Origin: an uncultured Heliobacteriaceae bacterium
Lineage (GTDB): Bacteria > Acidobacteriota > Blastocatellia > RBC074
NCBI GenBank assembly: GCA_964468345.1
Contig: CAYXVZ010000012.1
Span: 10,122-74,121, forward strand
Direction: 5' to 3'
Length of the DNA: 64,000 nt
Shown one piece after another: positions 18,641 to 44,613 of this stretch. The notes under the pieces are model-generated. The model searched no databases and had not been told where the DNA came from. It saw nothing but the letters and a program-made list of their open reading frames with translations. A program made the translations under genes and the position numbers. Position 1 is the first letter of the stretch. The number at the start of each line of letters is the position of its first letter.

Positions 18641-21190
18641 TCAATTCGCCAGGCCGACGCGGGCCAGCACCTGCTGGAAGCGCGGATGCTTGCGCAGCGG
18701 ATCGAAGACCGGCTCGACCTGCAACTCCATCAGGCCGCCGTCGCGCTCCGCAACCGCGGTTTCTAGCGCGGCCAGGGCTTTGTTCTGCTCTCCGATTCGC
18801 AGCAGCACGGCCGCAATCGCCGTCGAGGGAACGTAGCGTTCTTTCGACTCCGCCGTCAATTGCGAGAGATATTCCCGCCAGAACGATTCGCGGCCTTTCG
18901 AATACGCCGTTTTCAGGGCATTGACGTGTTCGGGAGCTCCCCGGCCCAGTTGTTGCGCGCGGATGAATTCCAGAATCGCATCCTGCGGCTGGCCTTTCTG
19001 TTCCAGAACGAGGCCCAGGCTGGAGTGCGCCGGGCCGTAATTGTCATTGAGCAGCAGCGTCTGGCGAAGATGATCGACTGCATCGTTATAGTCTCGCGCA
19101 TAATAAGACACCGTGCCGAAGGTCTGATTGACGGGCAGGGATTTCGGATCGAGTTTGCGCGCCGTTTGCAGTTCGGCATTCGCTTCGGCCGTCTTTCCCT
19201 GCAGGGCCAGAAACTCCGCATACCGGAGGCGCGGCGTCGCGTTTTTCGGCGCGAGTTCGATCGCCCGTTTGAATTCGCGCTCAGCCTCGCTCAGATTCCA
19301 ATCGTAGCGCAGGTAAACCTGCGCCAGCGTCAGGTGCGCGTCGGGCAGATCGCTGTTCTTGCCGAGCGCGATGAGGGCGACGTCTTTTGCCTTTTGCATT
19401 CCTTTGCGCGGCGGCAGGCCGTCGGAATTCAGCGCGTGACAGGCCGCGCAGCCCGCGGCCGCCAGCGAATAGGACGGATCTTTCGCGAAGGCGGCCTCGA
19501 AAAATTCATCGGCTTTTTGCCGGTCTTCCTGCGTTCCGCGGTTCCAGTGATAACGGCCTTTCAAAAACAAATCATAGGCTTCCGGGCTGTTCGGCATGGA
19601 CTTCGCGAGGCTTGCGGCCGCCGCATCGCTCAATCGGAATTCGAGTTTGCCGGTGATGCTGCGCGAAATTTCATCCTGAATCGTGAGCAGGTCGGAAAGC
19701 TTTTTGTTGAATCGCTCGCCCCAGATCTGTCGCCCGTTGCGGGTGTTGACCAGTTCGGCATTGATCGTCAGGTTGTTTCCGCGGCGTTCGATGCGGCCGA
19801 GCAGAACGGCCTCTACATCCAGATCGCGGCCGACGGCGCGTTCGTCGATCTGTTGTCCTTTATAACGGAAGACCGAATTCCGCGCGCTGATGCTCAGGTC
19901 ATCCCATTGCGAAAGGGAATTGATGATGCCTTCCGTGATTCCCTCGCTCAGGTACTCCGCGTCCGCATCGCCCGTGACATTGACGAAGGGCATCACGGCG
20001 ATCGTGTCGATTCTGGCGGCCTGCTGTTGATAGCGCGTATAGAAAAAGGCGCCCGCCGCCGCCAAACCCAGCAACAGAACCGCCAGCGCCGGCAGCAGAA
20101 GTTTGCGCTTTTTCTTCGGTTCCGCCTGCGGCTGCGGCATCGGCGTCACGATCGTTTGCACCGGCTCGGCCACGGAAGGAATGGCGCTGGTCTCATAGCT
20201 GAAATGCTCGCCGGAGGCCGGCGTCACGACCGTGTCGAGACCGGCCGAGCCGATCAGGCCCTCGACATAGGTCGTCTCGAGATGCACGGCGGGATCGGAT
20301 GAAATCACGGGAATTCCCTGATCGAGCGAATACTCCAACCGCGATTTGATTCGCTTGAGCGCGGTGATGACTTCATAGCCGTACTGAAATCTCTCTTCCC
20401 GGTTTTTGGCCAGCAGCTTATAGATCACCTCTTCGAGTTCGATCGGAATGCCCGGGATGCGTTCGGACGGGCGCGGCGGAATGCTGGTCAGCAGGGCGGC
20501 GATGATGTCGCTTGTCGTCGGTCCCGCGAAGGGACGCTCGCCGGTGATCATTTCATAGAGCACGACGCCGAGGCTGAACAGATCCGTGCGGCCGTCGAGC
20601 TTTTGCCCGCGCGCCTGTTCCGGCGACATATACGCCACCGTGCCGATCACCAGCCCGGGTTGCGTCTGCAGCATCGATCGCGTGTTGACCATCGCTTCAT
20701 CGAGGTCGGCGGTGTCCGTTTCCGTCAGCTTCGCCAGGCCGAAATCCAGGACTTTGATATAGCCATCCGGGCGAAGCATGATGTTCTCGGGTTTGATGTC
20801 GCGATGAATGATGCCCGCATTGTGCGCCGCGCCGAGCGCGCTGGCCGTCTGAATCGCAATTTCGAGCGCATCGCTCAAGCTCAGCTTTCGTCCCGCAATC
20901 GCATCTCGCAGCGTTTGCCCCTCGATGAACTCGGTCGCAATGAAGTGCGTGTCCTCCGTCCGGCCGATATCGAAGATCGTCAGGATGCTCGGGTGATTCA
21001 GGCCCGAGGCCGACCGCGCTTCATTCTCGAAGCGCCGCACGCGAAGCTCATCCTGCATAAACGTTTCGGGCAGAATCTTGAGCGCCACCTTGCGCCGCAG
21101 CCGCTCATCCTCCGCGAGATAAACCTCGCCCATTCCGCCCGCGCCCAGCTTTTTTATGATGCGATAGTGTGAAAGCGATTGCTCGATCAT
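18641..21190 (-). CDS. Ser/Thr protein kinase with transmembrane segment and C-terminal TPR repeats
   Basis: The kinase starts at MIEQSLSHYRIIKKLGAGGMGEVY with catalytic loop HRDIKPENIML and DFGLA. A TM helix and TPR-like repeats follow. The ORF continuation upstream to 21298 runs into a GC-rich hairpin and is rejected. Confidence 0.8.
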   Translation of the reverse strand: MIEQSLSHYRIIKKLGAGGMGEVYLAEDERLRRKVALKILPETFMQDELRVRRFENEARSASGLNHPSILTIFDIGRTEDTHFIATEFIEGQTLRDAIAGRKLSLSDALEIAIQTASALGAAHNAGIIHRDIKPENIMLRPDGYIKVLDFGLAKLTETDTADLDEAMVNTRSMLQTQPGLVIGTVAYMSPEQARGQKLDGRTDLFSLGVVLYEMITGERPFAGPTTSDIIAALLTSIPPRPSERIPGIPIELEEVIYKLLAKNREERFQYGYEVITALKRIKSRLEYSLDQGIPVISSDPAVHLETTYVEGLIGSAGLDTVVTPASGEHFSYETSAIPSVAEPVQTIVTPMPQPQAEPKKKRKLLLPALAVLLLGLAAAGAFFYTRYQQQAARIDTIAVMPFVNVTGDADAEYLSEGITEGIINSLSQWDDLSISARNSVFRYKGQQIDERAVGRDLDVEAVLLGRIERRGNNLTINAELVNTRNGRQIWGERFNKKLSDLLTIQDEISRSITGKLEFRLSDAAAASLAKSMPNSPEAYDLFLKGRYHWNRGTQEDRQKADEFFEAAFAKDPSYSLAAAGCAACHALNSDGLPPRKGMQKAKDVALIALGKNSDLPDAHLTLAQVYLRYDWNLSEAEREFKRAIELAPKNATPRLRYAEFLALQGKTAEANAELQTARKLDPKSLPVNQTFGTVSYYARDYNDAVDHLRQTLLLNDNYGPAHSSLGLVLEQKGQPQDAILEFIRAQQLGRGAPEHVNALKTAYSKGRESFWREYLSQLTAESKERYVPSTAIAAVLLRIGEQNKALAALETAVAERDGGLMELQVEPVFDPLRKHPRFQQVLARVGLAN

Positions 21191-21203
21191 ATGCTTATAA
21201 AAC

Positions 21204-21356
21204 AGGGGGGAGGGGCGAGGGATGAGGGGCGAGGGCAGAAGATTGATTCTCCGCTGCTGCCTTCGATTATTGGGTGCGTGGCAAGTAATGCCTTTCACTC
21301 GCCCCTTGTCCCTCTCCTCTCGTCCCTTTCTTCTCGCCCCTCGCCCCTTTCCTTCG
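21204..21356. repeat. GC-rich GGGGCGAGGGGCGAG-type palindromic element (family E), copy 1
   Basis: GGGGAGGGGCGAGGGATGAGGGGCGAGGG faces CTCGCCCCTTGTCCCTC...CTCGCCCCTCGCCCC. The element is intergenic. Confidence 0.55.
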
Positions 21357-28621: not shown

Positions 28622-30868
28622 TTAGTGTAACTTCGTGCGACTTCGTGGATGAAATTCGTTTTCTTGAATTCGATCGTTACCCGGATGATAGGAGCGTTCG
28701 AGATGCGCGTTGATTTCCGCCAGCGTCATGCGAACCGGTTTGAACTTGCCCGCGGCATAGAGTTCGGCCTGATCCAGATGATGCGGCGATTTCGGATCGG
28801 GGCTTTGCCCGAGCACCAGGATGGATTGTGCGCGAAGCTTTTTGCCGAATTCGACGACCGCCACGAAGGAATTGCCCGCCGTGCCATAGCGGCGCTTCTG
28901 GCCTTTTTCCGCGCGCGCTGAATAGGTAAAGACAACGCCCGCCGGCCCGGGCCCGCCCGCGACGGGGAAGCTCGGCCGCGCGTCGCTGAAAGGCTCGTCG
29001 CCCGAGGTGTGGACGCGCTGCAACCGATTGATCTCGCCCCAGGCCACGCGCCACGTGCCGAATTCCTTTTCGAGATCCCGCATGGTTTCTTCGAGCTTTT
29101 TGAGCGGATCGTCGTCTTTGCTCTTCAGCTTTTCATGCGTGAGCACAAACAGCGTTGTCGGAATGGATTCGATCGTCGCGACGAAGTTCCAGTTCGCCAG
29201 CTCCCTGATCGCCGGCGCGAGCTGTTCCGCCCGGGGCCCCTCCGTTTCGCGAAGCGCAAACCACGCCGCCAGCATTCGCTGCACGATCGGCGGCGCTTCG
29301 TTCACCGTCGTATCCGTTGCCGCCTTCGTCCATTCCTCATACGTGAATTTTTCCTGCCCGGTCAGAATGCGCAGCGAAGACTTTGCTCGCGGCGTCTGTT
29401 CCTCGGGGGCGAGATAGGCCGGGAAGTCTTCTTTTCGCGGATTGCCGAAGGCCGTCATTTGAAAGGGCGTCGAATTGCAATTCTGCAAAAAGCCGGCGGG
29501 CGGATTCAGCCGTTGCGGCAGTTCAGCGAAGGCGTGATAGCCCTTCCATTCCGTTGCCGGATCGTCGCCCGCGACCGCTTTGCTCCAGTCGAATTTCGGA
29601 TCGCGTTTCGGAACCGCATTCCCGTGCACATAAAAGATATTGCCCGCGGCATCGGCGTAAAGCGTGTTCGAGCCGGTCAAGGCTCGCTGCGACAGCGCGA
29701 GTTTAAAGGCCGCGAAGCTTCTCGCCCGATTCATCGCGAATCGTTGCACCAGTTCGCCGCCCTCTTCCATCCGGCTCGCGCGGGCCGCAACCGCTTTGCC
29801 GTTTTGCAGGCCGATGATCGGCCCGTGATGCGTCTTGCGAAAGCGATAGGCGCGCGACTCGATGCCCGCGGCGGTTTTCACGCGGACTTCGTCGGTCCAT
29901 TCGATCGCCGTGCGATAGCCCGCGCCGTAGCGATAGGCCAGCGGCCGTTTGGGATCATCGAAGCTTTCGAGATAGCCATCGACCGTGTCGGCGTAGTTGT
30001 TCGTATGACTCCAGCCCAGCCATTGATTGAAGCCCGTGCGAATGTACGGCGTGCCGAGAATGGCAAAGCCGTACACATCGATGCCTTCCTCGCTCTGCAG
30101 ATGCGCTTCATAACGCTGGCCGCCGCCGAAAAATCCCACATGCGGATTGATAAAAAGCAGCGCATGGCCCGATGCGCTTTTCGACGGCCCGGCCGCCCAC
30201 ATGTTCGAGCCTTCCGTGGGCTCGTCGCAGGAAGAATTTTCACCACGAAGAAACGAAGAGCACGAAGAAAGAGAGTCTTTAAGCAAAATGGCTCCTGCTC
30301 TCTCTTCGTGCTCTTCGTTTCTTCGTGGTTTCAACATCTCTGCTGTATTTTGCAGCGGCTCACCGATTCGTATCTCTTCTCGTTTCAGCCCATAGCGGTT
30401 CAGCGCGCCGATGCGGCTCATTCGGCTCATGGCCAGCGTGTGCCAGGGTTCAAATTTCGTGAGCAGGCGCGGCTTCTGTTCCGGATGTTTTGCGATATAA
30501 AAATTGATCCCCGCGGCGAAGGCATCGCAGAGCGCCCGCTCGCGCGGCGGCATTGCGGCGTATTCGGCCTTCGAGCGTTTTTCGATTTCAAAGGCCCGAT
30601 AGAGCAGGTCGTTTTCCAATCCCTTCTCGCCTTCGATCTCCGCCTGCCGTCCCACGGCGCGAATGAAATCGGTTTCGAGCTGCCAGAAATTGTCTTCGCA
30701 TTGCGCATACATCAGGCCGAAGACGACCGCCGCATCCGTCTTGCCGAAGATATGCGGCACGCCGTACGAATCGCGATGGATCGTCACGGACTGCGAAAGG
30801 TCAACCCTTTGCGCAAATGCTGAGCCGACGGTAAAGACGAGGAATAGCGAAAGGAACAGGCTACGCAT
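28622..30868 (-). CDS. penicillin acylase family (Ntn-hydrolase) precursor, with a family A repeat inserted in-frame in the spacer region
   Basis: Signal peptide MRSLFLSLFLVFTVGSAFAQ. The beta-subunit N-terminal nucleophile motif SNMWAAGPSKSASGHALLFINPH is present. Spacer sequence [33 protein letters not shown] is encoded by the repeat copy at 30236..30343. Confidence 0.75.
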   Translation of the reverse strand: MRSLFLSLFLVFTVGSAFAQRVDLSQSVTIHRDSYGVPHIFGKTDAAVVFGLMYAQCEDNFWQLETDFIRAVGRQAEIEGEKGLENDLLYRAFEIEKRSKAEYAAMPPRERALCDAFAAGINFYIAKHPEQKPRLLTKFEPWHTLAMSRMSRIGALNRYGLKREEIRIGEPLQNTAEMLKPRRNEEHEERAGAILLKDSLSSCSSFLRGENSSCDEPTEGSNMWAAGPSKSASGHALLFINPHVGFFGGGQRYEAHLQSEEGIDVYGFAILGTPYIRTGFNQWLGWSHTNNYADTVDGYLESFDDPKRPLAYRYGAGYRTAIEWTDEVRVKTAAGIESRAYRFRKTHHGPIIGLQNGKAVAARASRMEEGGELVQRFAMNRARSFAAFKLALSQRALTGSNTLYADAAGNIFYVHGNAVPKRDPKFDWSKAVAGDDPATEWKGYHAFAELPQRLNPPAGFLQNCNSTPFQMTAFGNPRKEDFPAYLAPEEQTPRAKSSLRILTGQEKFTYEEWTKAATDTTVNEAPPIVQRMLAAWFALRETEGPRAEQLAPAIRELANWNFVATIESIPTTLFVLTHEKLKSKDDDPLKKLEETMRDLEKEFGTWRVAWGEINRLQRVHTSGDEPFSDARPSFPVAGGPGPAGVVFTYSARAEKGQKRRYGTAGNSFVAVVEFGKKLRAQSILVLGQSPDPKSPHHLDQAELYAAGKFKPVRMTLAEINAHLERSYHPGNDRIQENEFHPRSRTKLH
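30236..30343. repeat. family A hairpin element, copy 2 (inside the penicillin acylase CDS)
   Basis: The termini CACCACGAAGAAACGAAGAGCACGAAG ... CTTCGTGCTCTTCGTTTCTTCGTGG match copies at 18493 and 50693. Confidence 0.75.
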
Positions 30869-30889
30869 GATCTCTCCAATGACAGCCGG

Positions 30890-30953
30890 GCGGACAGGAA
30901 AATGAACGACAGGAAAATGAAGCATATTTTCCTGTCGTTCATTTTCCTGTCCG
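30890..30953. repeat. family D hairpin (GGACAGGAAAATGAACGACAGGAAAAT ... ATTTTCCTGTCGTTCATTTTCCTGTCC), copy 1
   Basis: Perfect palindrome between convergent or neighbouring hydrolase genes. Confidence 0.65.
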
Positions 30954-30966
30954 CCGCCCTTGAGTG

Positions 30967-32277
30967 TTAATGAATTCCGCTCGCATCCAGTTTGAGCAGC
31001 GTGTGCAGCAGAACATTGGTGCCGTTCGTGATGTCTTCGGGCGTGGAGAATTCGCGCGGGCTGTGGCTGATGCCGTCCCGGCTCGGGATAAAGATCATGC
31101 CGACCGGACAGAGGTTCGCGATTTCCTGCGCGTCGTGGCCCGCGCCGCTCGGCATCAGCTTCGTCGTCAGGTTCAACTGCTTCGCGGATTCATCGATCAG
31201 CTTTCGCAGCCGCGCATCGGTCGGCGCGGGCGGCGTCGCGTTGACCTGCTTGATCGTGAATTTCGTGCCCGTGGCTTTTTCGATGGCGGCGACTTCGGCC
31301 TGAATTTTTTCAAACAGCATCTGCACCTTGGCGGCATCCAGATCGCGAAGGCCCAGGCTGGTGATGACTTTTCCGGGGACGACATTGAACGCGCCGGGGA
31401 AGGCCTGAATCTTGCCGACTGTGCCAACCTGCCGGCCCGGCACGCTGGTCACGACGCGATTGACGGCGTCGATGTATTTCGCCGCGGCCAGCAGGGCATC
31501 GCGCCGCTGATTCATCGGCGTCGTGCCCGCGTGATTCGCGAAGCCCTCGATTTCAACGTCCCACCAGTTCACCGAGACGATGCCCTCGACCACGCCGATG
31601 TTCAGTTTTTCCGTGTGCAGAATGCCGCCCTGCTCGATGTGCAGTTCCAGATAGGCCGCGATATCGCCTTTTTTGCGGACCGCCGAGGCCAGCCGCTCCG
31701 GATCGCCGCCGATGAATTTGATGCCGTCGCGAATCGTCTTCTTGCTGTTCGTGACGAGGTTGAGTTCCTTTTCGCTCAGGCCCTTCGCCAGGGCGTGACT
31801 GCCGATCGTGCCGCCCTCTTCGTTTTGAAACAGGATGACTTCGAGCGGGTGGCGCAGGGGGATTTTCTTTTCGAACAACGTTTGCGCGACTTCAATCGCG
31901 CCCATCGATCCGACCTGTCCGTCATAGCTGCCGCCGTCAGGGACCGAATCGATGTGCGATCCGATCATCAAGGGCTTCAACGCCGCATCCGTGCCCGGCC
32001 GTTTGCCCAGGATGTTTCCGACGGGATCGATGCTGACTTCGAGGCCGGCCGCGCGCATCAGATTCATCGCATACTTTCGCGCTTCGAGATCGGCGTCGGA
32101 ATACGCGACGCGGCTCGTCCCGCCTTCTTTGGTTTTGCCGAACTGCGCCAGTTCCGCCAGATGCGAATTGACGCGCTCTCCATTGACGCGGAGCGATGCA
32201 TTCGATTGCGGCATTGGCAGCGCAACGGCTCCGAGAGTGAGCAACAGGTTTTGATTGAAGTTTCTTCTATTGAGCAT
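30967..32277 (-). CDS. M20-family Zn-dependent amidohydrolase (N-carbamoyl-amino-acid amidohydrolase / allantoate amidohydrolase family) with Tat-like signal
   Basis: Tat-like leader MLNRRNFNQNLLLTLGAVALP. M20 carbamoylase motif GSHIDSVPDGGSYDGQVG and FQNEEGG. Upstream ORF extension through hairpin D2 is rejected. Confidence 0.7.
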   Translation of the reverse strand: MLNRRNFNQNLLLTLGAVALPMPQSNASLRVNGERVNSHLAELAQFGKTKEGGTSRVAYSDADLEARKYAMNLMRAAGLEVSIDPVGNILGKRPGTDAALKPLMIGSHIDSVPDGGSYDGQVGSMGAIEVAQTLFEKKIPLRHPLEVILFQNEEGGTIGSHALAKGLSEKELNLVTNSKKTIRDGIKFIGGDPERLASAVRKKGDIAAYLELHIEQGGILHTEKLNIGVVEGIVSVNWWDVEIEGFANHAGTTPMNQRRDALLAAAKYIDAVNRVVTSVPGRQVGTVGKIQAFPGAFNVVPGKVITSLGLRDLDAAKVQMLFEKIQAEVAAIEKATGTKFTIKQVNATPPAPTDARLRKLIDESAKQLNLTTKLMPSGAGHDAQEIANLCPVGMIFIPSRDGISHSPREFSTPEDITNGTNVLLHTLLKLDASGIH

Positions 32278-32297
32278 GTTTTTTCTTTGCGCTTGGC

Positions 32298-32373
32298 GCG
32301 GACAAAAACATAAACGACAAGAAAATAGACTTACCTCGAAGGAGACATTTTCCTGTCGTTTATATTCCTGTCC
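32298..32373. repeat. family D hairpin, copy 2
   Basis: GGACAAAAACATAAACGACAAGAAAATAGAC...ATTTTCCTGTCGTTTATATTCCTGTCC. Confidence 0.6.
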
Positions 32374-32384
32374 GCTCACGTTCT

Positions 32385-33680
32385 CTATTTTTGTTTCCCG
32401 AACAGCGCCATCAGACCGTCCGCCACAGAGCCTCGCCAGCACAGCACATCGTGGCCGCCGCTGTATTCCGCATAGGTGACCGGATAACCGCGCGCGACCA
32501 GCGTGTCCCGCATGCGGCGGTTTTCGAGCACCATATTGATCGGGAAGCCCTGTTCGAGCCGCCCGACTTCCAGATAAAACCGCAGCGGCAATTTGGGCAG
32601 GGTCGCAAATTGTTTCGCCAGCCAGCCGCTCTCGACAAAGGCCGATTCGGGCGAAGTCTCGGTCCAGCCTTCATAAAACCAATAGGAGCCGGATTGCGAG
32701 AGCACATTGCCGATCACATCCGAGTGCCGCATGCCGACATAGGCCGCCGTCAGGCCGCCCAGGCTGAAGCCGCTGATCGCGACCTGTTTCGGATCCTCGC
32801 TGATCTTGAAACGGCGGCGCAGGTCGGGGACAAGTTCCTTGGCCAGGAATTCCGCGAATTTCGGCGAACAGCCCAGATCGCGGCTGCGCGTTTTGCCGCT
32901 GCTGACCATCACGGCCACGGTCGGCTGAATTTTGTCTTTCGCGATCAGGTTATCGAGGATGGTGGCCAACGGCACGGCGAAGGGAACGACTTCGCCGTCG
33001 AGGTAGATGAGCAGAGCCGGCGGCTTCGATCCCGCGGCGGCGGCCGGCGGCGTATAAATCTTGATCGGCCGATCCTCGCCGAGAATGGCGCTTTTGAAGC
33101 TTTCCTGCTTCGTTTCGCCGCGCGGCACGTCGGGCAGCGGTTTGAGCCATGCTTGCGGCGGCGCATCGGGCAACTCTACGATCGCGGCATTTGGCGGAAA
33201 CATAAAGGTCCGCGGATTGAGCGGATCGCGCCGCGAATGCTTCATGATTTTCTGTTCCAGCTCTTTGTCTCCCAGCACGACCTTGAAGGGATTGAGCATG
33301 AAAACATAAGTGTAGCGCGCATCCCGCGGGACTTTATCCGTTCGATACCAGAGATTGCTGTCGCCCAGCCGATGGAGCGCCTTGAAATACTGCTCGTTTG
33401 CGGGCGCGCCGCCGGCCATGCTGATGGCGTGGGTCTCCGCGTTTCCTTCCCATAGATAGGTCACCCACACAAATTTCTCATCGCCGGGGATTGCCTCGAC
33501 CAGCGGCGCCTTGCCCGCCATCTCGGTCCAGAAATTTTCCAGCGCGGTCTTGTTGCCCGCCTTGAGTTCTTTGTCCAGCGCCGCGATCCGCGGACTGTCG
33601 ATGGTTTCTTCCTGCGCGAAAGCTGAAAAGCACAGCAGGAAAAGTGCTGAGAGCGAGAGAAGAAAGATTCGTATGCGCAT
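32385..33680 (-). CDS. secreted alpha/beta-hydrolase esterase (enterochelin esterase-like / esterase D family)
   Basis: Signal peptide and the GFSLGGLTAAY nucleophile elbow (GxSxG). The C-terminal part follows an esterase fold. Confidence 0.65.
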   Translation of the reverse strand: MRIRIFLLSLSALFLLCFSAFAQEETIDSPRIAALDKELKAGNKTALENFWTEMAGKAPLVEAIPGDEKFVWVTYLWEGNAETHAISMAGGAPANEQYFKALHRLGDSNLWYRTDKVPRDARYTYVFMLNPFKVVLGDKELEQKIMKHSRRDPLNPRTFMFPPNAAIVELPDAPPQAWLKPLPDVPRGETKQESFKSAILGEDRPIKIYTPPAAAAGSKPPALLIYLDGEVVPFAVPLATILDNLIAKDKIQPTVAVMVSSGKTRSRDLGCSPKFAEFLAKELVPDLRRRFKISEDPKQVAISGFSLGGLTAAYVGMRHSDVIGNVLSQSGSYWFYEGWTETSPESAFVESGWLAKQFATLPKLPLRFYLEVGRLEQGFPINMVLENRRMRDTLVARGYPVTYAEYSGGHDVLCWRGSVADGLMALFGKQK

Positions 33681-33693
33681 AGCGAGTTCGGCA

Positions 33694-33788
33694 GAAAATC
33701 AAAAGGCAAAAGGCAAATATCAAAAGGCAAAAATAGTCAGCTCCTATTTTGCCTTTTGATATTTGCCTTTTGCCTTTTGATTTCATTT
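33694..33788. repeat. family C hairpin element, copy 2
   Basis: AAAATCAAAAGGCAAAAGGCAAATATCAAAAGGCAAAAATAGTCAGCTCCTATTTTGCCTTTTGATATTTGCCTTTTGCCTTTTGATTTC. Confidence 0.7.
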
Positions 33789-33816
33789 AAATGTTCCTGA
33801 GTTGCAGGGAGAAGAA

Positions 33817-35448
33817 CTACTTCCGTTTTTGTCCCGCCAGTCGCGGTTCCGAAACGCAGGAGAAATTCGCGGCATCGTCCGTGCTGCCGCTGCCTTTATA
33901 GCGCGCGACCTGCGGATAGGGGCAGAGCGGGCGCGAGCGCGTGACGGGACTTTTCGGATCGCCCGATTGTCGTTTGACGGCGATGACCTGCGCGGGAGCG
34001 ACGCCCTCTTCGACCCATCGTTCAAGCGCGACCGTCATATCGTGCAGCGCATCGGATTGCGCTGCGGTCACCATCTGGCCGAAGTTGTTCGGGCCGGGAC
34101 CGCCGGCGCAATGCTGGACGCCCGGCGCCATAAACAGGCGCATGAACGCATCCGATTCGCGCGCGCCCATTTTCGTTCGCACGCTCTCATAATAATTGAT
34201 CGTGTTGACCGGCGGCAGCGCGGCGTCGTTCCAGCCGTGATAGAGAATCAGCTTGCCGCCGCGCGCCTTGAAGGCTTTCAGATCCGGATTGATTGCGTTC
34301 AACGCGTGCGCGAGTTTCTCGTCCGCCAGCTTGCTGTCTTTTTCAAGATCGAAGGTTTTGAAGTCCCACGCCGGATTGTTATAAACCATATTTTTGAACG
34401 CCTGCGTGGAAAAGAAAAACTGCAATCCGCTCTGCGGCCCGGTGCCCGTGATCCAGCCGGTCCATCCGCCGGGGCCGGTTTCGCCGCCCGGCACAAAGCC
34501 CGGAATCAGCAACTGGCCTTTCGCATTGCGCGGCCCGGCATAGATTTTCTTGAGCGAAGCGATTTGTTTTTCGGTCAGGCAGGCATCCGATTCCGCACCT
34601 TTGCATAGCAACACTGCCGGATCGAAGGCACATTTCGTCGGATCGTCGAGGACGTCGTCTTTCACGCCGTCCCGCGCATCGCAACTGGCCAGCGCGGCGG
34701 CCTCGATCGCCTTGAGCTTGCTCGATGGAATGTAGTTCGCCGGGTCTGCCTGCGTCTGCAGCATATTCCACGCGAAGCCCGTCAAAATATGCGTGAAGTA
34801 ATTCGCCGGCGCGCCCGCGATCAAACCGTCGTAGTCGTTCGGATAGCGCTGCACTTCCATCAGCGCTTGCCGGCCGCCGTTCGAGCAACTGGCGAAATAG
34901 GATTTTTTCGGCCCGTCGCCATAAAAGGCCTTGATGATCGCTTTCGCCGCGACCGTCATTTCGTGAATCGCTCGATGGCCATAATCGACGATCTTTTCCG
35001 GATGGCCAAGCGCCCAGGTTGCGTCGCCCCCCGTATGCCCCGTATCGGTCGAAGCCGTCGCATAATTTCGTGCGAGCGCCCCCGCCAGCCCCGGATAGGA
35101 AATCGATCCCGCAAAGCCGCCATTGCCGATGCCGTGAAATTTGCCGTTCCAGCCCGTGGCGGGCATCCAGACTTCAAATTTGATATCCGAATCGGACGAC
35201 GGTTTGATCGTGCCCGCAACGCGGCAGAACGCGGGCAGGTCCTTGAACGGCGCGCCGCCGCCCTGCGCCGGCGCGAACGTGCCCGCCGCTACGGTCTGCG
35301 CCGTCGTGATGGTCGTATTCGGCAATTTCAATTTCGCCATCTCTTCGCAACTTGCCGCTGATGCGCGGGGGACGAATGCGACGGTGATCACGAACAACGC
35401 GAGCATCCAGAAGAGAAAATTATGGTGTGATCTCTTATCAGTTTTCAT
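33817..35448 (-). CDS. tannase/feruloyl esterase family protein (secreted)
   Basis: Signal peptide [33 protein letters not shown]-x-GG active-site motif ASCSNGGRQ. The cysteine pattern and C-terminal ...[12 protein letters not shown] are typical of the family. Confidence 0.7.
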
Positions 35449-35784
35449 TCTCGTCCTCTCTAAACAGATGTCGGTGCCTTGCAGGTAGAATCCTCGCAAA
35501 GAGCTGAGTACAGCTTCGCGGACTCCCTTTCAACAATCTAAGCGCCCTTTTGCGCATGATCTCCTGATCGAATTTTCCTTGATGAGCGGAAGTTATCACA
35601 CTCACGCGCCGATCGCCCAAAGCCCAAAAATTTTTCTTAGGCATGTCACTTTGAAGGATCAGGTTTCGATTTGAGAGATGTAGGGAGATTTCGAGAGGTT
35701 GGGAAAAGCGGAGAAGTCGTACAACGCCGCTTTTATCCACAGGGCAAAGGAATCGATATATCAGTGAGAAGGAGGAGATTTTCA

Positions 35785-36621
35785 ATGGAAATAGAGATAA
35801 CGCCGATCGCAGTTGCAGGGCTCGACGCCGGATTGATGATCGCCCGGGCAACGGAGCGTTTGCTCGGAGCAGTGATTGGCGCCACGAGCATTTTTCTCGG
35901 ATACCGTTTGTTTTTGCATTTGCCGCAACAGACCGATAGTGAGGGCCGAATTGTTCTGCCCGGTGGAATCAGCATCTGGTTGAGTCGCGTCGGCCCAGGC
36001 GTCTTTTTCTTACTCTTTGGCACTGCCTTGATCGCGCTTTCACTTTCTCAGCGATTGTCCATTGAATCAAAGCAGAGCATAGACAGCCAGGAATCCATAA
36101 ACAGCACTTCCACCCTGGTTGCGTCCCCTGCGACGATCGCAGCAAAAAGAGTTGCCGATTCGGATCCCGTTCGTCGCAAATCCTCCGCATTCAAGGGGCG
36201 GCGCGCAAACAGAGAGTTGCCCGTATACAACGATAGAAATGAGGTCAATGCAGGAGCCTTTCGCGAGTCGCATCAGAACATGGAAAAGAAGGTGTCTTTT
36301 AGCAACAGTCAGTTACCCGATGATCAGCTTCATCGGCAGGCATCGTTGCGCGCTGAAGCACGCAAAACAATTGCGGACCTGGCTGAAATTCAAGGAATCC
36401 TGCACCGCGGGGATGAGGAAAGCAACGATGTGTCGTTCGAAATCGCACTGCAAAAAAGCAAGCTGGCAATTTTAAAGTTGGTGTGGGGAGAAGACTGGGG
36501 CGAATTCGATGCATTTCGAAACTGGATCGATAAAGGAGCCTTACCGCCGGTTCCGAAGTCGGTCGGCAACGAAGCCATCGAAATTTACAAGGCTTCACAT
36601 CTGAAGAGGGAGGGCAAATGA
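35785..36621 (+). CDS. hypothetical membrane protein (2 N-terminal TM helices plus a soluble domain of about 190 aa). First gene of the lower-GC island.
   Basis: TM segments GLDAGLMIARATERLLGAVIGATSIFLGY and VGPGVFFLLFGTALIALSL. Its stop overlaps the next start (ATGA at 36618). Local GC is about 50% against about 62% in the flanks. Confidence 0.5.
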   Translation: MEIEITPIAVAGLDAGLMIARATERLLGAVIGATSIFLGYRLFLHLPQQTDSEGRIVLPGGISIWLSRVGPGVFFLLFGTALIALSLSQRLSIESKQSIDSQESINSTSTLVASPATIAAKRVADSDPVRRKSSAFKGRRANRELPVYNDRNEVNAGAFRESHQNMEKKVSFSNSQLPDDQLHRQASLRAEARKTIADLAEIQGILHRGDEESNDVSFEIALQKSKLAILKLVWGEDWGEFDAFRNWIDKGALPPVPKSVGNEAIEIYKASHLKREGK

Positions 36622-37958
36622 AAATTTCTCGATATTCCTTCTTAGTATGTTTCTTCGCTTTGGCATTGACTGCCAAGGCAACGGCAGAAGGGCGGGACAG
36701 GTGGGCCGGTTTTTACGATCAGCAAACGCTCGCTTATTGGGAAACACAGATGCGGCCAGGCATTGAAGAAAATTTCTATCAAGTCATCCTTCCCCACCTG
36801 ACCCAGGAGGAAAAGGAAGTGCTGTCTGATGTGAGGTTACAGTTTCCGTTGGAGGCTGCAGATCATCCGATGAACTTTCGGGCTGAAGTCGAGGGAGGGC
36901 GGAAAACAGTCGTAATGCCCATTTCATCCCTGCGCTTTTTTGGCGATCTCGCACTGGCGATGATATGGCTCCAGGGGCATGGTTACAGTACGGATTCGAT
37001 CTCGGATTATATCGGAATGCTCAAATGGCAATGGCCCAGCGGGTTCGCGGGCAATGCTCATCGCCCCCTCGAAGTGCTCGGCATTGCAAACACCGCTCGT
37101 TCTGAACGACAAATTATGGATCGGTATTACGCGGCATTTAAAAGCGCCGTTTTCTTCATTCTTTGTCACGAACTCGGGCATATCTCTCAATGGAACTCTC
37201 CAGGACGATCCTTCGGCTCGCAAATCGATGCGGAGAAGGATGCGGATGAATTTGCCCTGAAGATGATGCGCCGGATTGGCGCTCCTCCCGCTGGCATGTC
37301 CTTGTACTTTCTGGCTCTCGGACAGTTGGAATTCAATGGAGGAGATTCTGAGTATCTCGACCTGCCCGCGGCGACGCATCCGACGGTTGCGGAGCGATTG
37401 ATAGCGATTGCCACTCACATGAATAACCGCTTTTCAGATTTTGCGGTTACGAGCGGCTCGGTGGAGAACCTTGTAAAGATGATTCAAGGATTTGTCGATC
37501 TTGCAAAAGTTCTGAGTGACCCCAAACTTCAATTTTACATGCGGCAAAAAGGTCTCACGGCCCAACTGGAAATGCTTGGGCCTCGTCGTCCTGGAAAGGT
37601 TCTCCCGGAGCAATACGAATTATTCCGTTTCCCCCGGCAGACGTATAGTGGTTTGTATATGGCCCGCTGGTCGGATCACAAGGGAGAATCGTTTGATGGA
37701 GTTATGCTCCTGATTCGAAATAAGGATAACCTGAGAGGAATCTTTACCATCGAACATGAAAATATGACTGCCGGTACAGTTGTCCTCAAAGGCAAGATCA
37801 AGAGAAACCAATTGGAATTCGAATGGTGTTGGGGGCCGGAACATTTCGGAAAAGGGGAGTTCAACTCAAATTCAGAGGGAACCTCCATCGAAGGAACCTG
37901 GGGCTATACCAGGGACAGGAGCGGCGCGGGGAAGTGGATTTTGCAAAGAATCAAATAA
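36618..37958 (+). CDS. secreted zincin-like metallopeptidase domain protein (HExxH ... E..A.EFA, ImmA/IrrE-like spacing) with an uncharacterised C-terminal domain
   Basis: Signal peptide MKISRYSFLVCFFALALTAKATA. Motif CHELGHISQW followed 16 aa later by EKDADEFALKMM. Translationally coupled to the upstream membrane protein. Confidence 0.5.
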   Translation: MKISRYSFLVCFFALALTAKATAEGRDRWAGFYDQQTLAYWETQMRPGIEENFYQVILPHLTQEEKEVLSDVRLQFPLEAADHPMNFRAEVEGGRKTVVMPISSLRFFGDLALAMIWLQGHGYSTDSISDYIGMLKWQWPSGFAGNAHRPLEVLGIANTARSERQIMDRYYAAFKSAVFFILCHELGHISQWNSPGRSFGSQIDAEKDADEFALKMMRRIGAPPAGMSLYFLALGQLEFNGGDSEYLDLPAATHPTVAERLIAIATHMNNRFSDFAVTSGSVENLVKMIQGFVDLAKVLSDPKLQFYMRQKGLTAQLEMLGPRRPGKVLPEQYELFRFPRQTYSGLYMARWSDHKGESFDGVMLLIRNKDNLRGIFTIEHENMTAGTVVLKGKIKRNQLEFEWCWGPEHFGKGEFNSNSEGTSIEGTWGYTRDRSGAGKWILQRIK

Positions 37959-38018
37959 CTCTCAGTCTGATCGAAAAACCAACCATTCTTACTTTTTCAA
38001 CTTAAACAGGAGACAGCC

Positions 38019-39776
38019 ATGTCGTTTACACCGAACTTTCAAAACCTCAGTCAACGGAAAAAGAAAATTTCGGGCCTGAAGCACGCAGCGGTTTTGCGGG
38101 CGGAGGCCAACAACTTCAAACCGATGCGCATGCAACCGACCCTGATCGACGGAGTGATCGAGGGCGGCGGGGCACTGGGCGCTGCCTATGCCGGCGCCTT
38201 GCGCGCTTTGCACGACAACAATATTTGGTTTGCCCGGGTGGCTGGTACATCCGCGGGGGCGATTACAGCCGCCATGATTGCGGTCGGTTTCAATGCGGAG
38301 GAAATTCAGTGGTTGTGCGCAGCATACGATCCGCACGCGCCGGTGCCGAAGAGTTTGAAAGATCTCCACATTGAAGAGCCGATTGATTTCTCGAGCTTTC
38401 TTGATTTTCCAAAATTGGAGGATATCAGTCGCCCTGCCATGCGACGGACGGCCTTATGGAAAGCGCTTAAGGGCGTGATTCTCGATGAGATCGGCCGTAT
38501 TGATATACCAATCCCGACAAAGGATGAAGTGACCGACGATATCGTCCGCAGGCTGCAAGCAGCGTCTGGCCTGGGAGATTTTTCGAATTTGGGCGAAATG
38601 ATTCGGAAGGTCTTATCCATTCCACTGGCCCCCTTGCCCGAGGAGAAACCTCATGTTCGAGATTTCCTGCCCAACACGGAAGGGCTTCGAATTCAGTTTG
38701 CAGACACCATGTGGAAGGCGATCGCAGGCAATTTCCCTGCAGAGCTGATGATGACGAATCTGCTTCATGAGGGAGGCATTTTTGAAGGTCGGAAGTTCGT
38801 GGAGGTCATCACGAAATTGTTCGGGAGTAAGATTCACAGAAATCCTAAGGCGACTGTCTTATTCAAAGATCTGCCGATTCCATTGGCGGTCATTGCCTCG
38901 GATTTGAAACAGGGGCAAATGCGTGTTTACAGCGCGCAGACAGATCCGAATATGATTGTGGTGGAGGCGATTCGACAGTCGATGAGCATACCATTTTTCT
39001 TTCAGCCCTGGATGAACGGCCGTTTTGTGGATGGCGGGCTCTGCTCGAACTTTCCGGCTTGGCTTTACACCGACGCAGGAGAGGCATACTGGCCGCCGGC
39101 ACTACGTGATAGCGCCCGTCCGAAAGTCGGTTTCGTCCTCGGCGAGAATTTGGCGGCGAGACCGGAATGGAATGTAGAGCCGCCTCGGTTCGCCGTGACC
39201 GGCAATCCGCCGCGCGTCGATGATGAACTCGTCCTCAAACCTCTCCTTGCCGAGAAAATCAAAGAGCTTGGGCTGTTTGCGCCTGGTGAATGGTCGACAT
39301 CCAAGTTGGAAGAATTTTTTGACGATTATGCGGTCCTGAGAGAAATGGCGGGAGTCAACGGGCTGGACAAGGAGAATCTGACGAGATCCTTGATCATCGC
39401 GGGATTGATGAGTGGCAGAAACTATTATGACGTCGTCATCCCGTTGCAGGGATATCACTGGCTCGATTTCAGCGTGAACAATGATGAGGACGATATGTGG
39501 GCGATGTGGGACCGCGCGTGGCATGCCACCTATCATGCTCTGGGAAGCTCCCAGGAAAATCGACCAGCACTGCTCCGCGCTACGATGATGCAAAACAGTC
39601 CGTATAAGGCAGGCCGATTGTGGCTGCCTGGAGTTTCAATCTCGGAGGGAATTCACACTGTCCTGAGCCCGATATCTACGAAATCGGGCTCAGGAAGCAT
39701 CGTTTTTTCCGCCGCTCAATTCGCGAAAGAGCCAGGCCTGCGCCATGCTCCATTCGCGCAGGACGGTGCGCGGTGA
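38019..39776 (+). CDS. patatin-like phospholipase domain protein (585 aa; N-terminal PNPLA domain plus an unknown C-terminal domain of about 250 aa)
   Basis: Oxyanion motif GGGALGAAYAGAL, nucleophile motif GTSAG, catalytic Asp motif VDGGLCSNFP. No signal peptide. An alternative start is at 38124 (MRMQPTLIDGV). Confidence 0.8.
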   Translation: MSFTPNFQNLSQRKKKISGLKHAAVLRAEANNFKPMRMQPTLIDGVIEGGGALGAAYAGALRALHDNNIWFARVAGTSAGAITAAMIAVGFNAEEIQWLCAAYDPHAPVPKSLKDLHIEEPIDFSSFLDFPKLEDISRPAMRRTALWKALKGVILDEIGRIDIPIPTKDEVTDDIVRRLQAASGLGDFSNLGEMIRKVLSIPLAPLPEEKPHVRDFLPNTEGLRIQFADTMWKAIAGNFPAELMMTNLLHEGGIFEGRKFVEVITKLFGSKIHRNPKATVLFKDLPIPLAVIASDLKQGQMRVYSAQTDPNMIVVEAIRQSMSIPFFFQPWMNGRFVDGGLCSNFPAWLYTDAGEAYWPPALRDSARPKVGFVLGENLAARPEWNVEPPRFAVTGNPPRVDDELVLKPLLAEKIKELGLFAPGEWSTSKLEEFFDDYAVLREMAGVNGLDKENLTRSLIIAGLMSGRNYYDVVIPLQGYHWLDFSVNNDEDDMWAMWDRAWHATYHALGSSQENRPALLRATMMQNSPYKAGRLWLPGVSISEGIHTVLSPISTKSGSGSIVFSAAQFAKEPGLRHAPFAQDGAR

Positions 39777-40325
39777 GATTGCCAGCACTTCCGCCGTTTC
39801 TTCCACGGTCAGGCCGCCAAAATAGCGCAATTCAATGATGCGGCTTTTTCGTTCATCCAGTTGGGCAAGGCTGTCGAGCGCATCATCCAATGCGACCAGA
39901 TCGGCGCTGCGTTCATTGGATTCCCGTTCCGCTTCGACCAGCGAGACGCGCACGATTTCGCCGCCGCGCTTTTGCGCACGCTGCTGGCGGTACTCATCCA
40001 CCACGATGCGTCGCATGAGTTGTGCGGCAACCCCGAAAAAATGGGCGCGATTCTGCCAGCGAGCGCTTTTCCAATCGATCAAGCGTAAATAGGCCTCATT
40101 GATCAGGGCCGAGGTTTGCAGCAGATGGCCAGGACGTTGCCGGTTTAAATACCGGCGCGCGATCCGCTGCAATTCAACCTGCACGATGGGGACCAACTGG
40201 TCCAGCGCCTCCTGCCTGCCATCGCTCCAGGCTTCGAGCAACTGGGTGATTTCATGCTGTCTGGGTGATTCCATGGATTGAATTTTCATGAGCTGCTCAG
40301 GATCTTTCCGGGCTGCAACAACCAA
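39690..40325 (-). CDS. ECF-type RNA polymerase sigma factor with N-terminal extension (Sig70_X6-like)
   Basis: Region 2 LINEAYLRLIDW and region 4 ELRYFGGLTVEETAEVLAISPRTVLREW. N-terminal ITQLLEAWSDGRQEALDQLVP extension. The 3' end overlaps the patatin gene by 87 nt in convergent orientation. Confidence 0.8.
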   Translation of the reverse strand: MVVAARKDPEQLMKIQSMESPRQHEITQLLEAWSDGRQEALDQLVPIVQVELQRIARRYLNRQRPGHLLQTSALINEAYLRLIDWKSARWQNRAHFFGVAAQLMRRIVVDEYRQQRAQKRGGEIVRVSLVEAERESNERSADLVALDDALDSLAQLDERKSRIIELRYFGGLTVEETAEVLAISPRTVLREWSMAQAWLFRELSGGKNDAS

Positions 40326-41261: not shown

Positions 41262-44238
41262 TTAGTTCCGGACCTCCGCCAACAGAAGATCGCTTTTTAC
41301 CTGGGAATGCAGATAGGTGAGCCAGCGTCCATCGGGAGAGACGCTTAAGCCCCGCGAGCCCGCGCTGAAGGAGGAATTCAATTTCGCGACGGTTGAAATC
41401 CTGCCCGTTGCAAAGGGATAAAATTCGATCAGGGATTGGCTTGGCCCGACATTCGTGCCGAAAAAGATGCCGGTTTGGGTGACATCCCACATGGACCAGT
41501 ACCCGGCCTTATGCGTGTCGGTCAGAAGAGTTTCCGCGCCCGTGGTCAGGTCGATGCGCCAGAGGCCGGGAGTTTGCCTCTTCCTGACATACACCAGAAA
41601 TTTGCCATCCATGGCTTCGTGGGGCTCGATGCCGCCGTGCTTCGTGATTTGCACCGGCTCGCCGCCGCTCACCGGGACCTTGTAAATTTGCGACTCCCCG
41701 GTGCGGTCTGAACTGAAGTAAATCCAGTTGCCGTCTCGCGACCAACTGGGCGTTGAGTTATTGAAATTGTTTTGAACGAGCTTCCGTTGTTCGCCGGTTT
41801 CAAGGTGAAGTGCGAAAATGGCAGCCTTGCCGTCGAGATAGCGCGTAAAAGAAATCTGCTTTGAATCCGGCGACCAGTTTGGCCAGCCCGGCGAAAATTT
41901 CGGGTCGGAGATCAGTTGTCGCTGGTTTTGTCCATCGCTGTCGCACATCCATAACGTTTCGTTGCCGCTCAGCGCCGTTTGATACACCAGCTTTGTTCCG
42001 TCGGGCGAATAACGTTGATAAAACTCGATCTTGGTGGATCCGATTAACTTTTCGGGCGGCTGGTTGGTGACAGCAGTTCCTTTCAATCCCAGCCGCATTA
42101 CATCCACGTCATAATCGGCTTTGACATAGCACAGACGCCGGTTCTGGCGGTCATACACTCCTCCCATCAGGATGGCGTCGGGGCCCGTGAGCCGCTTGTA
42201 TTGCAATGTATTCACATCCATCTGAACAAGACCGATGGATGTGTCTTCACCCGGAGCCACGCCTGAGAAAAGTAATTCGTGATCATTTCCCAACCAGGCC
42301 AGGGAATTGATTCGTCGCATGTCTTTTGTTACTTGCCGGGCTTCTCCGCCTGCGACGGGAATCAACATAACTTCGCGACGGCTATCGGAAGCCGGCGGGT
42401 TCCTGACAAAGGCGATGGTTTTTGCATCGGGGGAAAATGCGGGCAGAAAATCACCCAGGCTTCCCGCCGCGGGGTTGGTTAATACCCGTCTTTCTCCCGT
42501 CGCCAGATTCAACAGGTTGATCCGGAGCGGCGACTGAGACGATTCACGATCTCCGAAAGCGAGCAGCGTCCCATCCGGCGACCAGGATAACTCCGAGCCG
42601 GCGATTCCCCCGGGTCGCTGCGGCGAAAGGCTGGTCAGCTTGCGCTCCGCACCTCCTCCCGTCGGAAGGACATAGATTCCGCCTTCGGATTGCGTGCGGC
42701 GAGTAAAGGCCAGACTGGCGCCGTCCGGAGACCAGGCCGGATCGTTGTCGTTTGCAGGATGGTTCGTCAGACGAAGCGTCCTTTCGCCATCGATCTCTTT
42801 GATATAGAGATCGAGATTTTCATTTTTCTCCCCTCCATAGGAGAAGGCGATTGATTTTCCATCGGGGGAAAACGCCGGCGTCGATTCCGCGCCGGAAAAT
42901 GTGGTCAGCGGATTGGGCTTGGTTATCGTCAATGGCGAAAAGGCCGGCAGTGCGGGGCGCGACTTCATTCGATAAATGGCATATCCACCGCCCGCCAGGC
43001 CAAGGCTGATCGCGGCAAGCAGGGCCGCCCGCAAATAGTTGCCGCGTTGGAAGAGTCTTTCGCCGCTCGCGGTATCCAGCGCAGCGCTGATTTCATTGGT
43101 CGATGATTCAGGCCGGAATGCCGACGTCGCGTCGCGCTGGTCATATGTCGGGGCGTCGGCCCGCAGCCGAAGTTGTTTCAGGTCGATCAGTACTTCTTGA
43201 ATGGTCTGATAGCGTTCCGCGCGATCTTTGTGCAACGCTTTCTGCACCACCCTTTGCCATTCCGCCGAGGCAAGTGTCATTGGTTCAGGCTCGCGATTCA
43301 GGATGGCGCCGATCACCTCGAAGATTGTGGCGCCCGGAAACGGTTTGCGCCCTTCCAGCATTTCATACAGCACGATGCCCAGGCTGAAGATGTCCGTCCG
43401 CGCATCGACTTTTTCGCCGCGCGATTGCTCCGGCGACATGTAACTGGCCGTCCCGATCACCATGCCGGAATGCGTCAGGCTGGATTGTGCGCCATTGACG
43501 AGATCTACATCGAGTTGCGCCAGCCCGAAATCGAGCACTTTTACATAACCGTCCCGCCGGATCATGAGGTTTTCGGTCTTGATGTCTCGGTGAATGATGC
43601 CGGCTTCGTGCGCGACGGCCAATGCCTGGCAAACCTGGATGGCAATATCGGCGGCCTCGGCCGATGACATCGGAGGGCCTTCGCGCAATCGGCTGTGCAG
43701 CGTTTGGCCGTCGACATATTCGGTCGCCATAAAATAGTCGGCTCCAGCGTGTCCATGATCGAATAGTGTGATGATATTGGGATGATTGAGCGCCGAAATC
43801 GCAACGGCTTCCTGCGCAAAGCGTCGCACACGCGCCGCGTCGTCGGCAAATGACGCGGGCAGAAGTTTCAACGCCACCTTGCGATGCAATCGCGTGTCTT
43901 CCGCCAGCCAGACCTCTCCCATGCCGCCTTTGCCGAGCAATGAGACTACAAGGTACTGATTGACTTCGCGCGGCATTGCCATCGCCGGCGCCATGGATTG
44001 GCCTTCATGCAGCGTTTGATCGTCCTGAGCGGCCAGTCCCAGCGCATGATCTTCCAACGCAAATCCGGCGATAAAGCTGCCTGCTTCCGCATGCGCAGCC
44101 AACAGCGACTGGACTTCGTGCCGCAGCTTTACATCTGTGCCGCAGACCTCGGTCAGGAAAACTTCGCGCTCCGGCGCATTCAGTTCCAACGCGCGGTAAT
44201 AGAGCTGCTCGATTTGGCGGAAACGTTCAGCGTTCATT
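41262..44238 (-). CDS. Ser/Thr protein kinase fused to a TolB-like (PD40/WD40-like) beta-propeller
   Basis: Start at MNAERFRQIEQLYYRALEL. Kinase motifs HRDIKTENLMI and DFGLA. TM helix, then repeated SPDGKSIAF/WSPDGASLAF/FSPDAKTIAF propeller blades. Confidence 0.8.
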
Positions 44239-44613
44239 CGTGCTCCAGGCTGCGAGCAAGTGCATGATTTAGGGCTTTGCGGGCGGTCCCATGGCAGTTG
44301 GTCCCCGAAACGTCGACTTTGGAATTGCGGGCGGAATGTAGCACGAGGCCATTCAGCACCGATAGCGGAGAAATACATAGCAAGAAAATAATTTCTTCCG
44401 GGTGTCATTTTCCGGGTGGGGATTTTCGAATGTATTGATAGGAACCGGCGGCGCGAAGTGGTGTGATGGGGCGGGAGCAATGGGTGGTGTCGGCAGTCCC
44501 AGGGTTCAGAAAAAATTCAAGGAAAATTCAATCCGGGTTCAGGATTTGAATCGTAGAGCTGCTCTATAAAATAACTTCAAATCCGTGGACATAACATTGA
44601 AAAGGCAAGGACT

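Follow-up and report, generated by a model that had tools for sequence, protein, structure and literature searches.

A conserved gene pair for an M48-type zinc protease and a membrane protein, joined by a patatin-like lipase gene in a low-GC segment of an Acidobacteriota genome

Do three adjacent genes that share an orientation and a low G+C (GC) content act as one system, or do they merely share a place in the genome? This question is raised by a 64,000-nucleotide (nt) stretch of DNA from an uncultured bacterium of the phylum Acidobacteriota (assembly GCA_964468345.1, contig CAYXVZ010000012.1, positions 10,122 to 74,121; hereafter the window), in which a low-GC island encodes a membrane protein (g1), a zinc protease (g2) and a patatin-like lipase (g3). 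The first-pass annotation of this DNA regarded the three genes as a plausible defence, abortive-infection or toxin/immunity module, in which a protease licenses a lipase. Our comparative analysis revealed that g1 and g2 constitute a conserved, translationally coupled unit and that the three genes do not form a set elsewhere. We lean towards reading the segment as a composite operon of horizontal origin, comprised of a g1-g2 envelope protease module and a solitary lipase gene; its composite nature is much firmer than the functions proposed for its parts.

The three co-oriented open reading frames (ORFs) and the ATGA overlap of the first two, as originally annotated, were confirmed. Their positions in the window are as follows (aa, amino acids):

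35500-39800, + strand: low-GC island carrying g1, g2 and g3
35785..36621, + strand: g1, predicted small inner-membrane protein with two transmembrane (TM) helices, 278 aa
36618..37958, + strand: g2, predicted exported M48-type zinc metalloprotease, 446 aa, its start overlapping the g1 stop by 4 nt
38019-39776, + strand: ORF of g3, 585 aa in the window strain
38019..39617, + strand: family-conserved body of g3, predicted cytoplasmic patatin-like lipid acyl hydrolase, 532 aa

A conserved g1-g2 pair without a conserved third gene

Searches of representative genomes and metagenomes with an alignment of g2 yielded 71 loci, which comprise 53 distinct g2 lineages (individual loci are cited below by number, with the prefix L). 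Hidden Markov model (HMM) searches placed g1 directly upstream of g2 at nearly all of them. The two genes overlap by 4 nt (NTGA) at 20 of the 47 distinct junctions, and are separated by no more than 15 nt at 37 of the 47. The pair was found in Alpha-, Beta- and Gammaproteobacteria, Desulfobacterota (including the cultured Desulfacinum infernum DSM 9756), Spirochaetia and Bacteroidota; its distribution is patchy and sporadic, over at least six bacterial phyla or classes.

No third neighbour is conserved: in a comparison of 21 loci, no other cluster of ORFs recurred at more than 4. A Pfam census of 210 ORFs flanking the pair gave scattered, unrelated metabolic and housekeeping families; at one locus (L004) the pair adjoins the nusA-infB-rbfA-truB operon.

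The association with a lipase gene was assessed in the 27 g2 lineages (of 53) for which at least 1.2 kb of downstream sequence was available. A patatin gene on the same strand was detected downstream of g2 in three of them (the window's own lineage, Desulfacinum and the metagenomic locus L060) and in none of the other 24. The three patatins are mutually unrelated beyond their catalytic motifs and represent three different subfamilies. The proposal of a three-gene defence or toxin module was therefore not upheld: it is the pair that recurs, in 53 lineages, and not the set.

The patatin of Desulfacinum was missed both by a simple patatin regular expression and by the HMM of the g3 family, and was detected by a broader patatin HMM and by Pfam. 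It is a 979-aa Patatin+DUF3376 protein, whose gene starts 53 nt past g2. The operon (NZ_FQVB01000007.1; L009:7171-20276, also L010) contains, on one strand, genes encoding (i) an AAA+ ATPase with a winged-helix domain, (ii) g1, (iii) g2, (iv) the Patatin+DUF3376 protein, (v) a DUF4157/eCIS_core protein (1,393 aa) and (vi) an unknown protein (556 aa). Such a composition is reminiscent of the payload end of an extracellular contractile injection system (eCIS). Three large ORFs located upstream (720, 509 and 794 aa) gave no Pfam or PHROG match, and these models detected neither sheath nor tube nor baseplate families in the 10 kb upstream.

At L060, a patatin of the lipoprotein type is encoded approximately 0.9 kb downstream of a short form of g2 (see below). 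This case is weak, because a twin contig, L061, with an identical g2 carries MalQ instead. The two sequences (L060:5838 and L061:8299) are 100% identical over 5.8 kb, including g2, and diverge 310 nt past this gene, which reflects either strain variation or an assembly chimera.

The relatives of g3 are, for their part, solitary genes in soil bacteria. Six other loci of the g3 family contain neither g1 nor g2 nearby and share no common neighbour. At three of the six, a gene for a large STAND-type regulator lies beside the patatin gene, upstream and on the opposite strand (L028:3313-6432, L030:2699-5527 and L031:4057-6927); these regulators are of the STAND, LuxR or SARP type, with BTAD, NB-ARC and TPR domains in one and AAA_16 and GerE in two. 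A pPIWI-RE system is located immediately downstream of the patatin gene of L028, and the patatin gene of L081 (4946-5853) directly follows an Xre-antitoxin and RES-toxin pair.

The zinc protease and its membrane partner

The following features were recognised in g2 (residue numbers are those of the protein):

36618..36686, + strand: probable Sec signal peptide (residues 1 to ~23; K2, R5, a hydrophobic core, then AKA/ATA)
37167..37397, + strand: catalytic core, with HExxH, the Glu ligand and the HPx4R plug
37167-37181, + strand: H184-E-L-G-H188, on helix 164-192 of the model
37233-37235, + strand: third zinc ligand E206 (ExxAD), start of E206-KDADEF
37377-37397, + strand: active-site plug H254-P-x4-R260 (H254-P255-T-V-A-E-R260), 65 residues past H188
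37650..37949, + strand: C-terminal eight-stranded up-and-down beta-barrel (residues 345-444)

The signature of M48 peptidases is HExxH-x(30,140)-HPx4R together with a Glu ligand (PMC7950410). In g2, the HExxH motif lies on the active-site helix, the third-ligand Glu is present, HPx4R follows HExxH at a distance within the range of 30-140 residues, and the fold of the protease domain is like that of solved M48 enzymes, resembling BepA. H184, E185, H188, E206, H254, P255 and R260 are invariant in 22 members of the g2 family. The profile of these 22 relatives, when compared with PDB sequences, matched the Geobacter M48 peptidase 3c37 (E = 2.7e-8) and BepA (E = 1e-4). In the profile alignment, E206 falls on the zinc-ligand Glu (E201 of BepA) and T-H254-P on the H246-P247 plug of BepA, and the same residues are found in 3c37.

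The AlphaFold2 model of g2 (mean predicted local distance difference test score, pLDDT, of 86) consists of a signal-like N-terminal helix, a zincin domain and a C-terminal beta-barrel of eight strands; the last corresponds to what had been described as a beta-rich C-terminal domain. The N-terminal helix is modelled with low confidence, and the signal-peptide-like character of this region is conserved throughout the family alignment, which points to a periplasmic location.

The identification of g2 as an exported zincin, with HELGH followed by E206-KDADEF, thus stood, while the suggested ImmA/IrrE-like affiliation did not. No match to PF06114 (M78) was obtained at E ≤ 0.1, the M48 motif set is complete, and no gene for a helix-turn-helix protein recurs beside g2. 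The protein was also considered as an orthologue of Lit (U49), the exclusion protease of the e14 prophage, whose target is EF-Tu, and this was rejected on account of its score (25.1 versus a cut-off of 274 bits for NCBIfam NF007238) and its predicted export. The two enzymes have in common an M48-like active-site region: Lit also fits the HExxH...HPx4R pattern (PMC7950410), which explains the weak matches of g2 to Lit models (E = 4.5e-5 in PADLOC and 8.9e-6 in NCBIfam), spanning approximately 90 residues around HExxH. Unlike Lit, g2 has a signal-peptide-like N-terminus and a beta-barrel, lacks a prophage context and has no relatives on plasmids or viral contigs in searches of both sets. EF-Tu, moreover, is a cytoplasmic protein and out of reach for a periplasmic enzyme.

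The closest characterised counterparts are the periplasmic M48 proteases BepA, YcaL and LoiP of Escherichia coli, and Geobacter 3c37. g2 differs from them in lacking both a TPR domain and a lipobox, in being encoded nearly always with a translationally coupled two-TM partner, and in scoring, on its own, below the Pfam threshold for M48. BepA has a C-terminal TPR domain for docking to BAM, the machinery of beta-barrel assembly; no TPR match was obtained in g2, which contains the eight-stranded beta-barrel at this place instead. Among M48 proteases, g2 is thus a divergent member: its domain architecture (a plug-bearing catalytic domain plus a small beta-barrel) is new, and its obligate membrane partner belongs to no described family.

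The combination of two TM helices with a minimal beta-barrel is also known from Cap15, an effector of the cyclic-oligonucleotide-based anti-phage signalling system (CBASS). In the g1-g2 pair, one polypeptide bears the TM helices and another the barrel, which here forms part of an exported protease, and there is no CBASS context. The match to the Cap15 barrel is generic to the fold, since designed barrels and avidins score equally well.

In a subfamily of shorter g2 proteins (~330-370 aa) the C-terminal beta-barrel is missing, and no g1 was detected upstream of several of its members, which indicates that the cassette has simpler relatives:

Short-form g2 with g1: L012, L022, L053, L064
Short-form g2 without g1: L018, L023, L060, L065, L069, L071, L073

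The hydrophobic segments of g1 comprise residues 26-44 and 69-87. Alignment of the family revealed an invariant motif, LSRVGPGVFFxxFG, a conserved, Trp-rich C-terminal domain and a high conservation of the segment between the TM helices. No relative of g1 was found in Pfam, NCBIfam, the PADLOC models or PDB sequences, although the family itself is large: 2,223 representatives were retrieved at E ≤ 1e-3, and 294 at E ≤ 1e-30, from 1.84 billion proteins. The copy in the window is distinguished by one feature:

~36142..36339, + strand: low-complexity, Ser/Arg/Asn-rich insertion of ~60-70 aa, located after TM2 and ahead of the conserved C-terminal domain

This insertion is unique among the aligned homologues, which are approximately 200 aa long (190-235 aa). 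The two-TM assignment of g1 was accordingly borne out, and the soluble domain of about 190 aa attributed to it proved to consist in part of this insertion.

At three loci (L003:7382-8004, L011:9240-9896 and L072:387-986), g1 is split into two ORFs and g2 is intact. These splits are frameshifts or sequencing errors.

The lipase gene, its strain-specific tail and the low-GC island

The features of g3 and of the region downstream are:

38163-38180, + strand: GGGALG (residues 49-54)
38244-38258, + strand: GTS78AG (residues 76-80)
39030-39038, + strand: D338GG (residues 338-340)
39615..39776, + strand: read-through tail, 53 aa, strain-specific
39661..39695, no strand assigned: hairpin followed by a T-run (16-nt arms, 94% complementary; folding free energy -27.3 kcal/mol, z = -4.3)

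g3 matches Pfam Patatin (PF01734) with E = 8e-29. It contains the GGGxxG oxyanion hole, the GxSxG nucleophile and the DG[GA] aspartate in an alpha/beta patatin fold, and both the fold and the Ser78/Asp338 dyad are canonical; G49, G50, G54, S78 and D338-G-G are invariant in the family. The region past the patatin core gave no separate fold match, and no signal peptide was recognised.

In the best relatives of the g3 family among PDB sequences, PlpD (E = 5e-23) and VipD and ExoU (E = 1e-14 to 1e-18), the fold is the same. g3 differs from these toxins in having no secretion domain (such as the POTRA and barrel of PlpD), no chaperone and no type III or type IV secretion system context. In comparison with the CBASS patatins CapV and CapE, it is approximately 200 aa longer, with family-specific insertions, and neither in the island nor in the flanking DNA was a CD-NTase-like ORF seen: no such cyclase is among the ORFs listed at 32-44 kb, and none of the ORFs scanned there gave a cyclase match.

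The patatin motifs reported by the first-pass annotation are present, as is the 87-nt overlap of g3 with the convergent sigma factor gene; the overlap and the length of 585 aa are strain-specific. Thirty members of the g3 family stop a few residues past a conserved SPY/SPF motif, at approximately residue 530, and in a sibling contig with the same operon (L032) the product is 532 aa long and ends 72 nt from the sigma gene. The only difference between the window and L032 within 211 aligned bases is C/T at position 39615, which makes codon 533 (39615-39617) CGA in the window and TGA in L032 (Logan contig, 4499-4501). The overlap thus results from a stop-codon polymorphism that lengthens g3 by 53 aa, a tail modelled with pLDDT < 50. 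The extension reads through the hairpin, which is a probable terminator placed between the ancestral stop of g3 and that of the sigma gene, and continues into the latter.

The GC content of the island is 51.8%, compared with 57.5% over the remaining window. It is the GC minimum of the window at the 4.3-kb scale (64 kb scanned), approximately three standard deviations under the mean, and only 0.3% of sliding windows are equally low. The GC content at third codon positions of g1, g2 and g3 is 0.55, 0.54 and 0.61, respectively, against typical values of 0.65-0.77 in the other long ORFs. The dip exceeds chance. The segment, whose genes are indeed uncharacterised, is thus compositionally foreign, as had been supposed; only the flanks were overestimated at 60-65% GC, the 5-kb regions on either side having 58.4% and 55.6%. 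In most other hosts the pair lies close to its own locus in GC fraction (within approximately 0.01-0.07), whereas in the window it is about 6-7 points lower, a pattern that is consistent with a relatively recent transfer of the segment into this lineage. A search of the window revealed no tRNA gene and no significant flanking repeats at the island borders, and none of the window ORFs scanned encodes an integrase.

The arrangement of the island suggests that g1, g2 and g3 are co-transcribed: g1 and g2 overlap by 4 nt, 60 nt separate g2 from g3, a ribosome-binding site precedes each gene and the hairpin lies 3' of g3. The sites are AGGAGG, immediately 5' of the g1 ATG at 35785, GAGGGAGGG ahead of the ATGA overlap, and CAGGAG in front of g3. 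Upstream of g1, a search of the + strand gave no consensus sigma-70 site. The upstream region and the surroundings of the island comprise the following:

35500..35784, + strand: intergenic region, presumed promoter region of the g1-g2-g3 operon
28622-35499, - strand, directly left of the island: four consecutive hydrolase genes (penicillin amidase, M20/M28 peptidase, enterochelin-esterase-like esterase and tannase/feruloyl esterase)
39690-40325, convergent to g3: extracytoplasmic function (ECF) sigma factor gene, PF07638
40596-41018: SnoaL-like protein, near the ECF sigma gene
18641-21298 and 41262-44480: two large Ser/Thr kinases, of which one contains TPR repeats and the other a PD40 beta-propeller

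The kinase gene at 41262-44480 adjoins the ECF sigma and SnoaL-like genes. The window also encodes a CarboxypepD_reg outer-membrane barrel protein. Together with the Ser/Thr kinases and the PF07638 sigma factor, this protein suggests a chromosome of the Acidobacteria type.

Proposed function and alternative explanations

On the reading that we favour, the pair and the lipase have separate tasks. g2 would be exported via the Sec pathway and would bind zinc through H184, H188 and E206, with E185 as the general base. The plug His is autoinhibitory in BepA (PMC7950410), and by analogy the HPx4R plug (H254) of g2 probably keeps the enzyme inactive until it is pushed aside by a substrate or partner. 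The beta-barrel is likely to serve in the recognition of a ligand or substrate. The role of g1, whose synthesis is coupled to that of g2, is most likely to anchor the protease to the inner membrane on its periplasmic side or to regulate it there, possibly within a complex, and the two proteins together would cleave proteins of the envelope, either for quality control or to process them. g3 would be an independent cytoplasmic lipid acyl hydrolase, acting through Ser78 and Asp338 and co-transcribed with the pair in this lineage by happenstance.

Several observations weigh against this reading. (i) g2 alone scores under the Pfam gathering threshold for M48 (PF01435; 17.3 versus 20.3 bits, E = 0.0044); as its family profile nevertheless reaches M48 structures, we regard it as a divergent subfamily, on the margin of what the model covers. 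(ii) The charge counts of g1, evaluated by the positive-inside rule, give an ambiguous topology, which leaves the tethering role a proposal. (iii) Searches gave no characterised orthologue that would support any substrate. (iv) Patatins are rare (roughly 0.1% of genes), and their presence downstream of g2 in 3 of 27 lineages is, by a rough estimate, above chance, which allows for a facultative link of the pair to lipases; one or two independent juxtapositions besides that of the window are more than expected, and too few to establish a system. (v) The patchy distribution, together with the AAA ATPase and DUF4157 genes of Desulfacinum, is more in keeping with a role in conflict, or an accessory role, than with core housekeeping.

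The last of these points is accommodated by an explanation in which the genes form a toxin/immunity or injected-effector set, the zincin, the patatin or both being effectors, possibly carried as cargo by a contractile injection system, and g1 a membrane immunity or helper protein. We consider this unlikely. The Desulfacinum operon (AAA+ ATPase-g1-g2-Patatin+DUF3376-DUF4157/eCIS_core) and the sporadic occurrence of the pair speak for it, as does the fact that ExoU, VipD and PlpD are patatin toxins of the same fold as g3. However, structural components of an injection apparatus were found neither upstream of the Desulfacinum operon nor among the window ORFs scanned, which gave no eCIS marker (DUF4157, AAA ATPase, sheath, tube or baseplate); the other scanned loci lie among metabolic and housekeeping genes, such as the nusA-infB-truB operon; the Sec signal would direct g2 into the periplasm of its own producer; and g1 is located 5' of the putative toxin gene, not 3' of it.

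A related idea, to which we assign a similarly low probability, is that the pair represents a widespread, unannotated envelope module that works with membrane-active lipases, in the maturation, immunity or licensing of patatin effectors. Such cooperation would account for the independent recruitment of unrelated patatins beside the pair, here and in Desulfacinum, and possibly in a third lineage. A search of the literature yielded no paper linking a patatin to an M48/U49 cassette.

A three-gene system of abortive infection, defence or stress suicide, with g1 and g2 sensing a signal and licensing the patatin to degrade the membrane, appears quite improbable. The three genes are co-oriented, tightly spaced and followed by one probable terminator, they form a low-GC island, and the pair meets a patatin independently in Desulfacinum and perhaps at L060; all this would suit a single system, but 24 of 27 lineages have no downstream patatin, the three that occur are of unrelated subfamilies, and L061, the twin of L060, carries MalQ. 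The weak similarity of g2 to Lit and the known role of patatins as defence effectors likewise speak for it, g3 having weak matches to CapV and to an 'anti-phage phospholipase' model. With PADLOC, no match was obtained for g1, g2 gave weak Lit and U41 matches, and g3 gave weak matches to generic phospholipase effectors (E = 5e-10 to 2e-5). In NCBIfam, g3 scored 20.5 bits against a cut-off of 200 for CBASS_lipase and 64 against 1000 for VpdC, and fell far below the cut-off for the 'anti-phage phospholipase', while g2 reached only 25 of the 274 bits of Lit. Assignment to a catalogued defence system, including CBASS, was rejected on these scores, and the HMM searches (Pfam, PADLOC and NCBIfam) thus lent no support to the defence link that had been suggested.

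A defence-island context was rejected as well: the PADLOC census of the neighbours of the pair, which are not enriched for defence genes, gave only generic AAA proteins (IetA/TRIP13-like) and isolated matches. No plasmid relatives of g3 were found, in addition to the lack of plasmid and viral copies of g2. The notion that the protease licenses the lipase is also hard to square with their predicted compartments: g2 carries a probable signal peptide and is predicted to be periplasmic, and g3 has none, which makes direct licensing topologically awkward.

It is highly unlikely that the locus is a signalling device, in which g2 would cleave g1 in the manner of a site-1 protease and so signal to the adjacent ECF sigma factor and Ser/Thr kinase: the island does adjoin the PF07638 gene and the PD40-propeller kinase gene, and the conserved segment between the TM helices of g1 could be a cleavage site, but this adjacency was seen in the present lineage only, at more than 40 further loci no ECF sigma factor or other regulator recurs beside the pair, Pfam and PDB sequence searches revealed no recognisable anti-sigma or DNA-binding domain in g1, and the sigma gene is convergent, with the probable terminator between it and g3.

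The locus does not represent a new class of system, and the tempting interpretation as a new defence system is replaced by that of a composite operon, which is narrower and testable. The occasional recruitment of patatins and the Desulfacinum operon with its eCIS marker are leads, which by themselves do not make the locus a new system. M48 proteases such as BepA are central to the quality control of the bacterial envelope. How those that lack a TPR domain reach their substrates and are switched on is a question to which an obligate membrane partner combined with a small beta-barrel would be a new answer.

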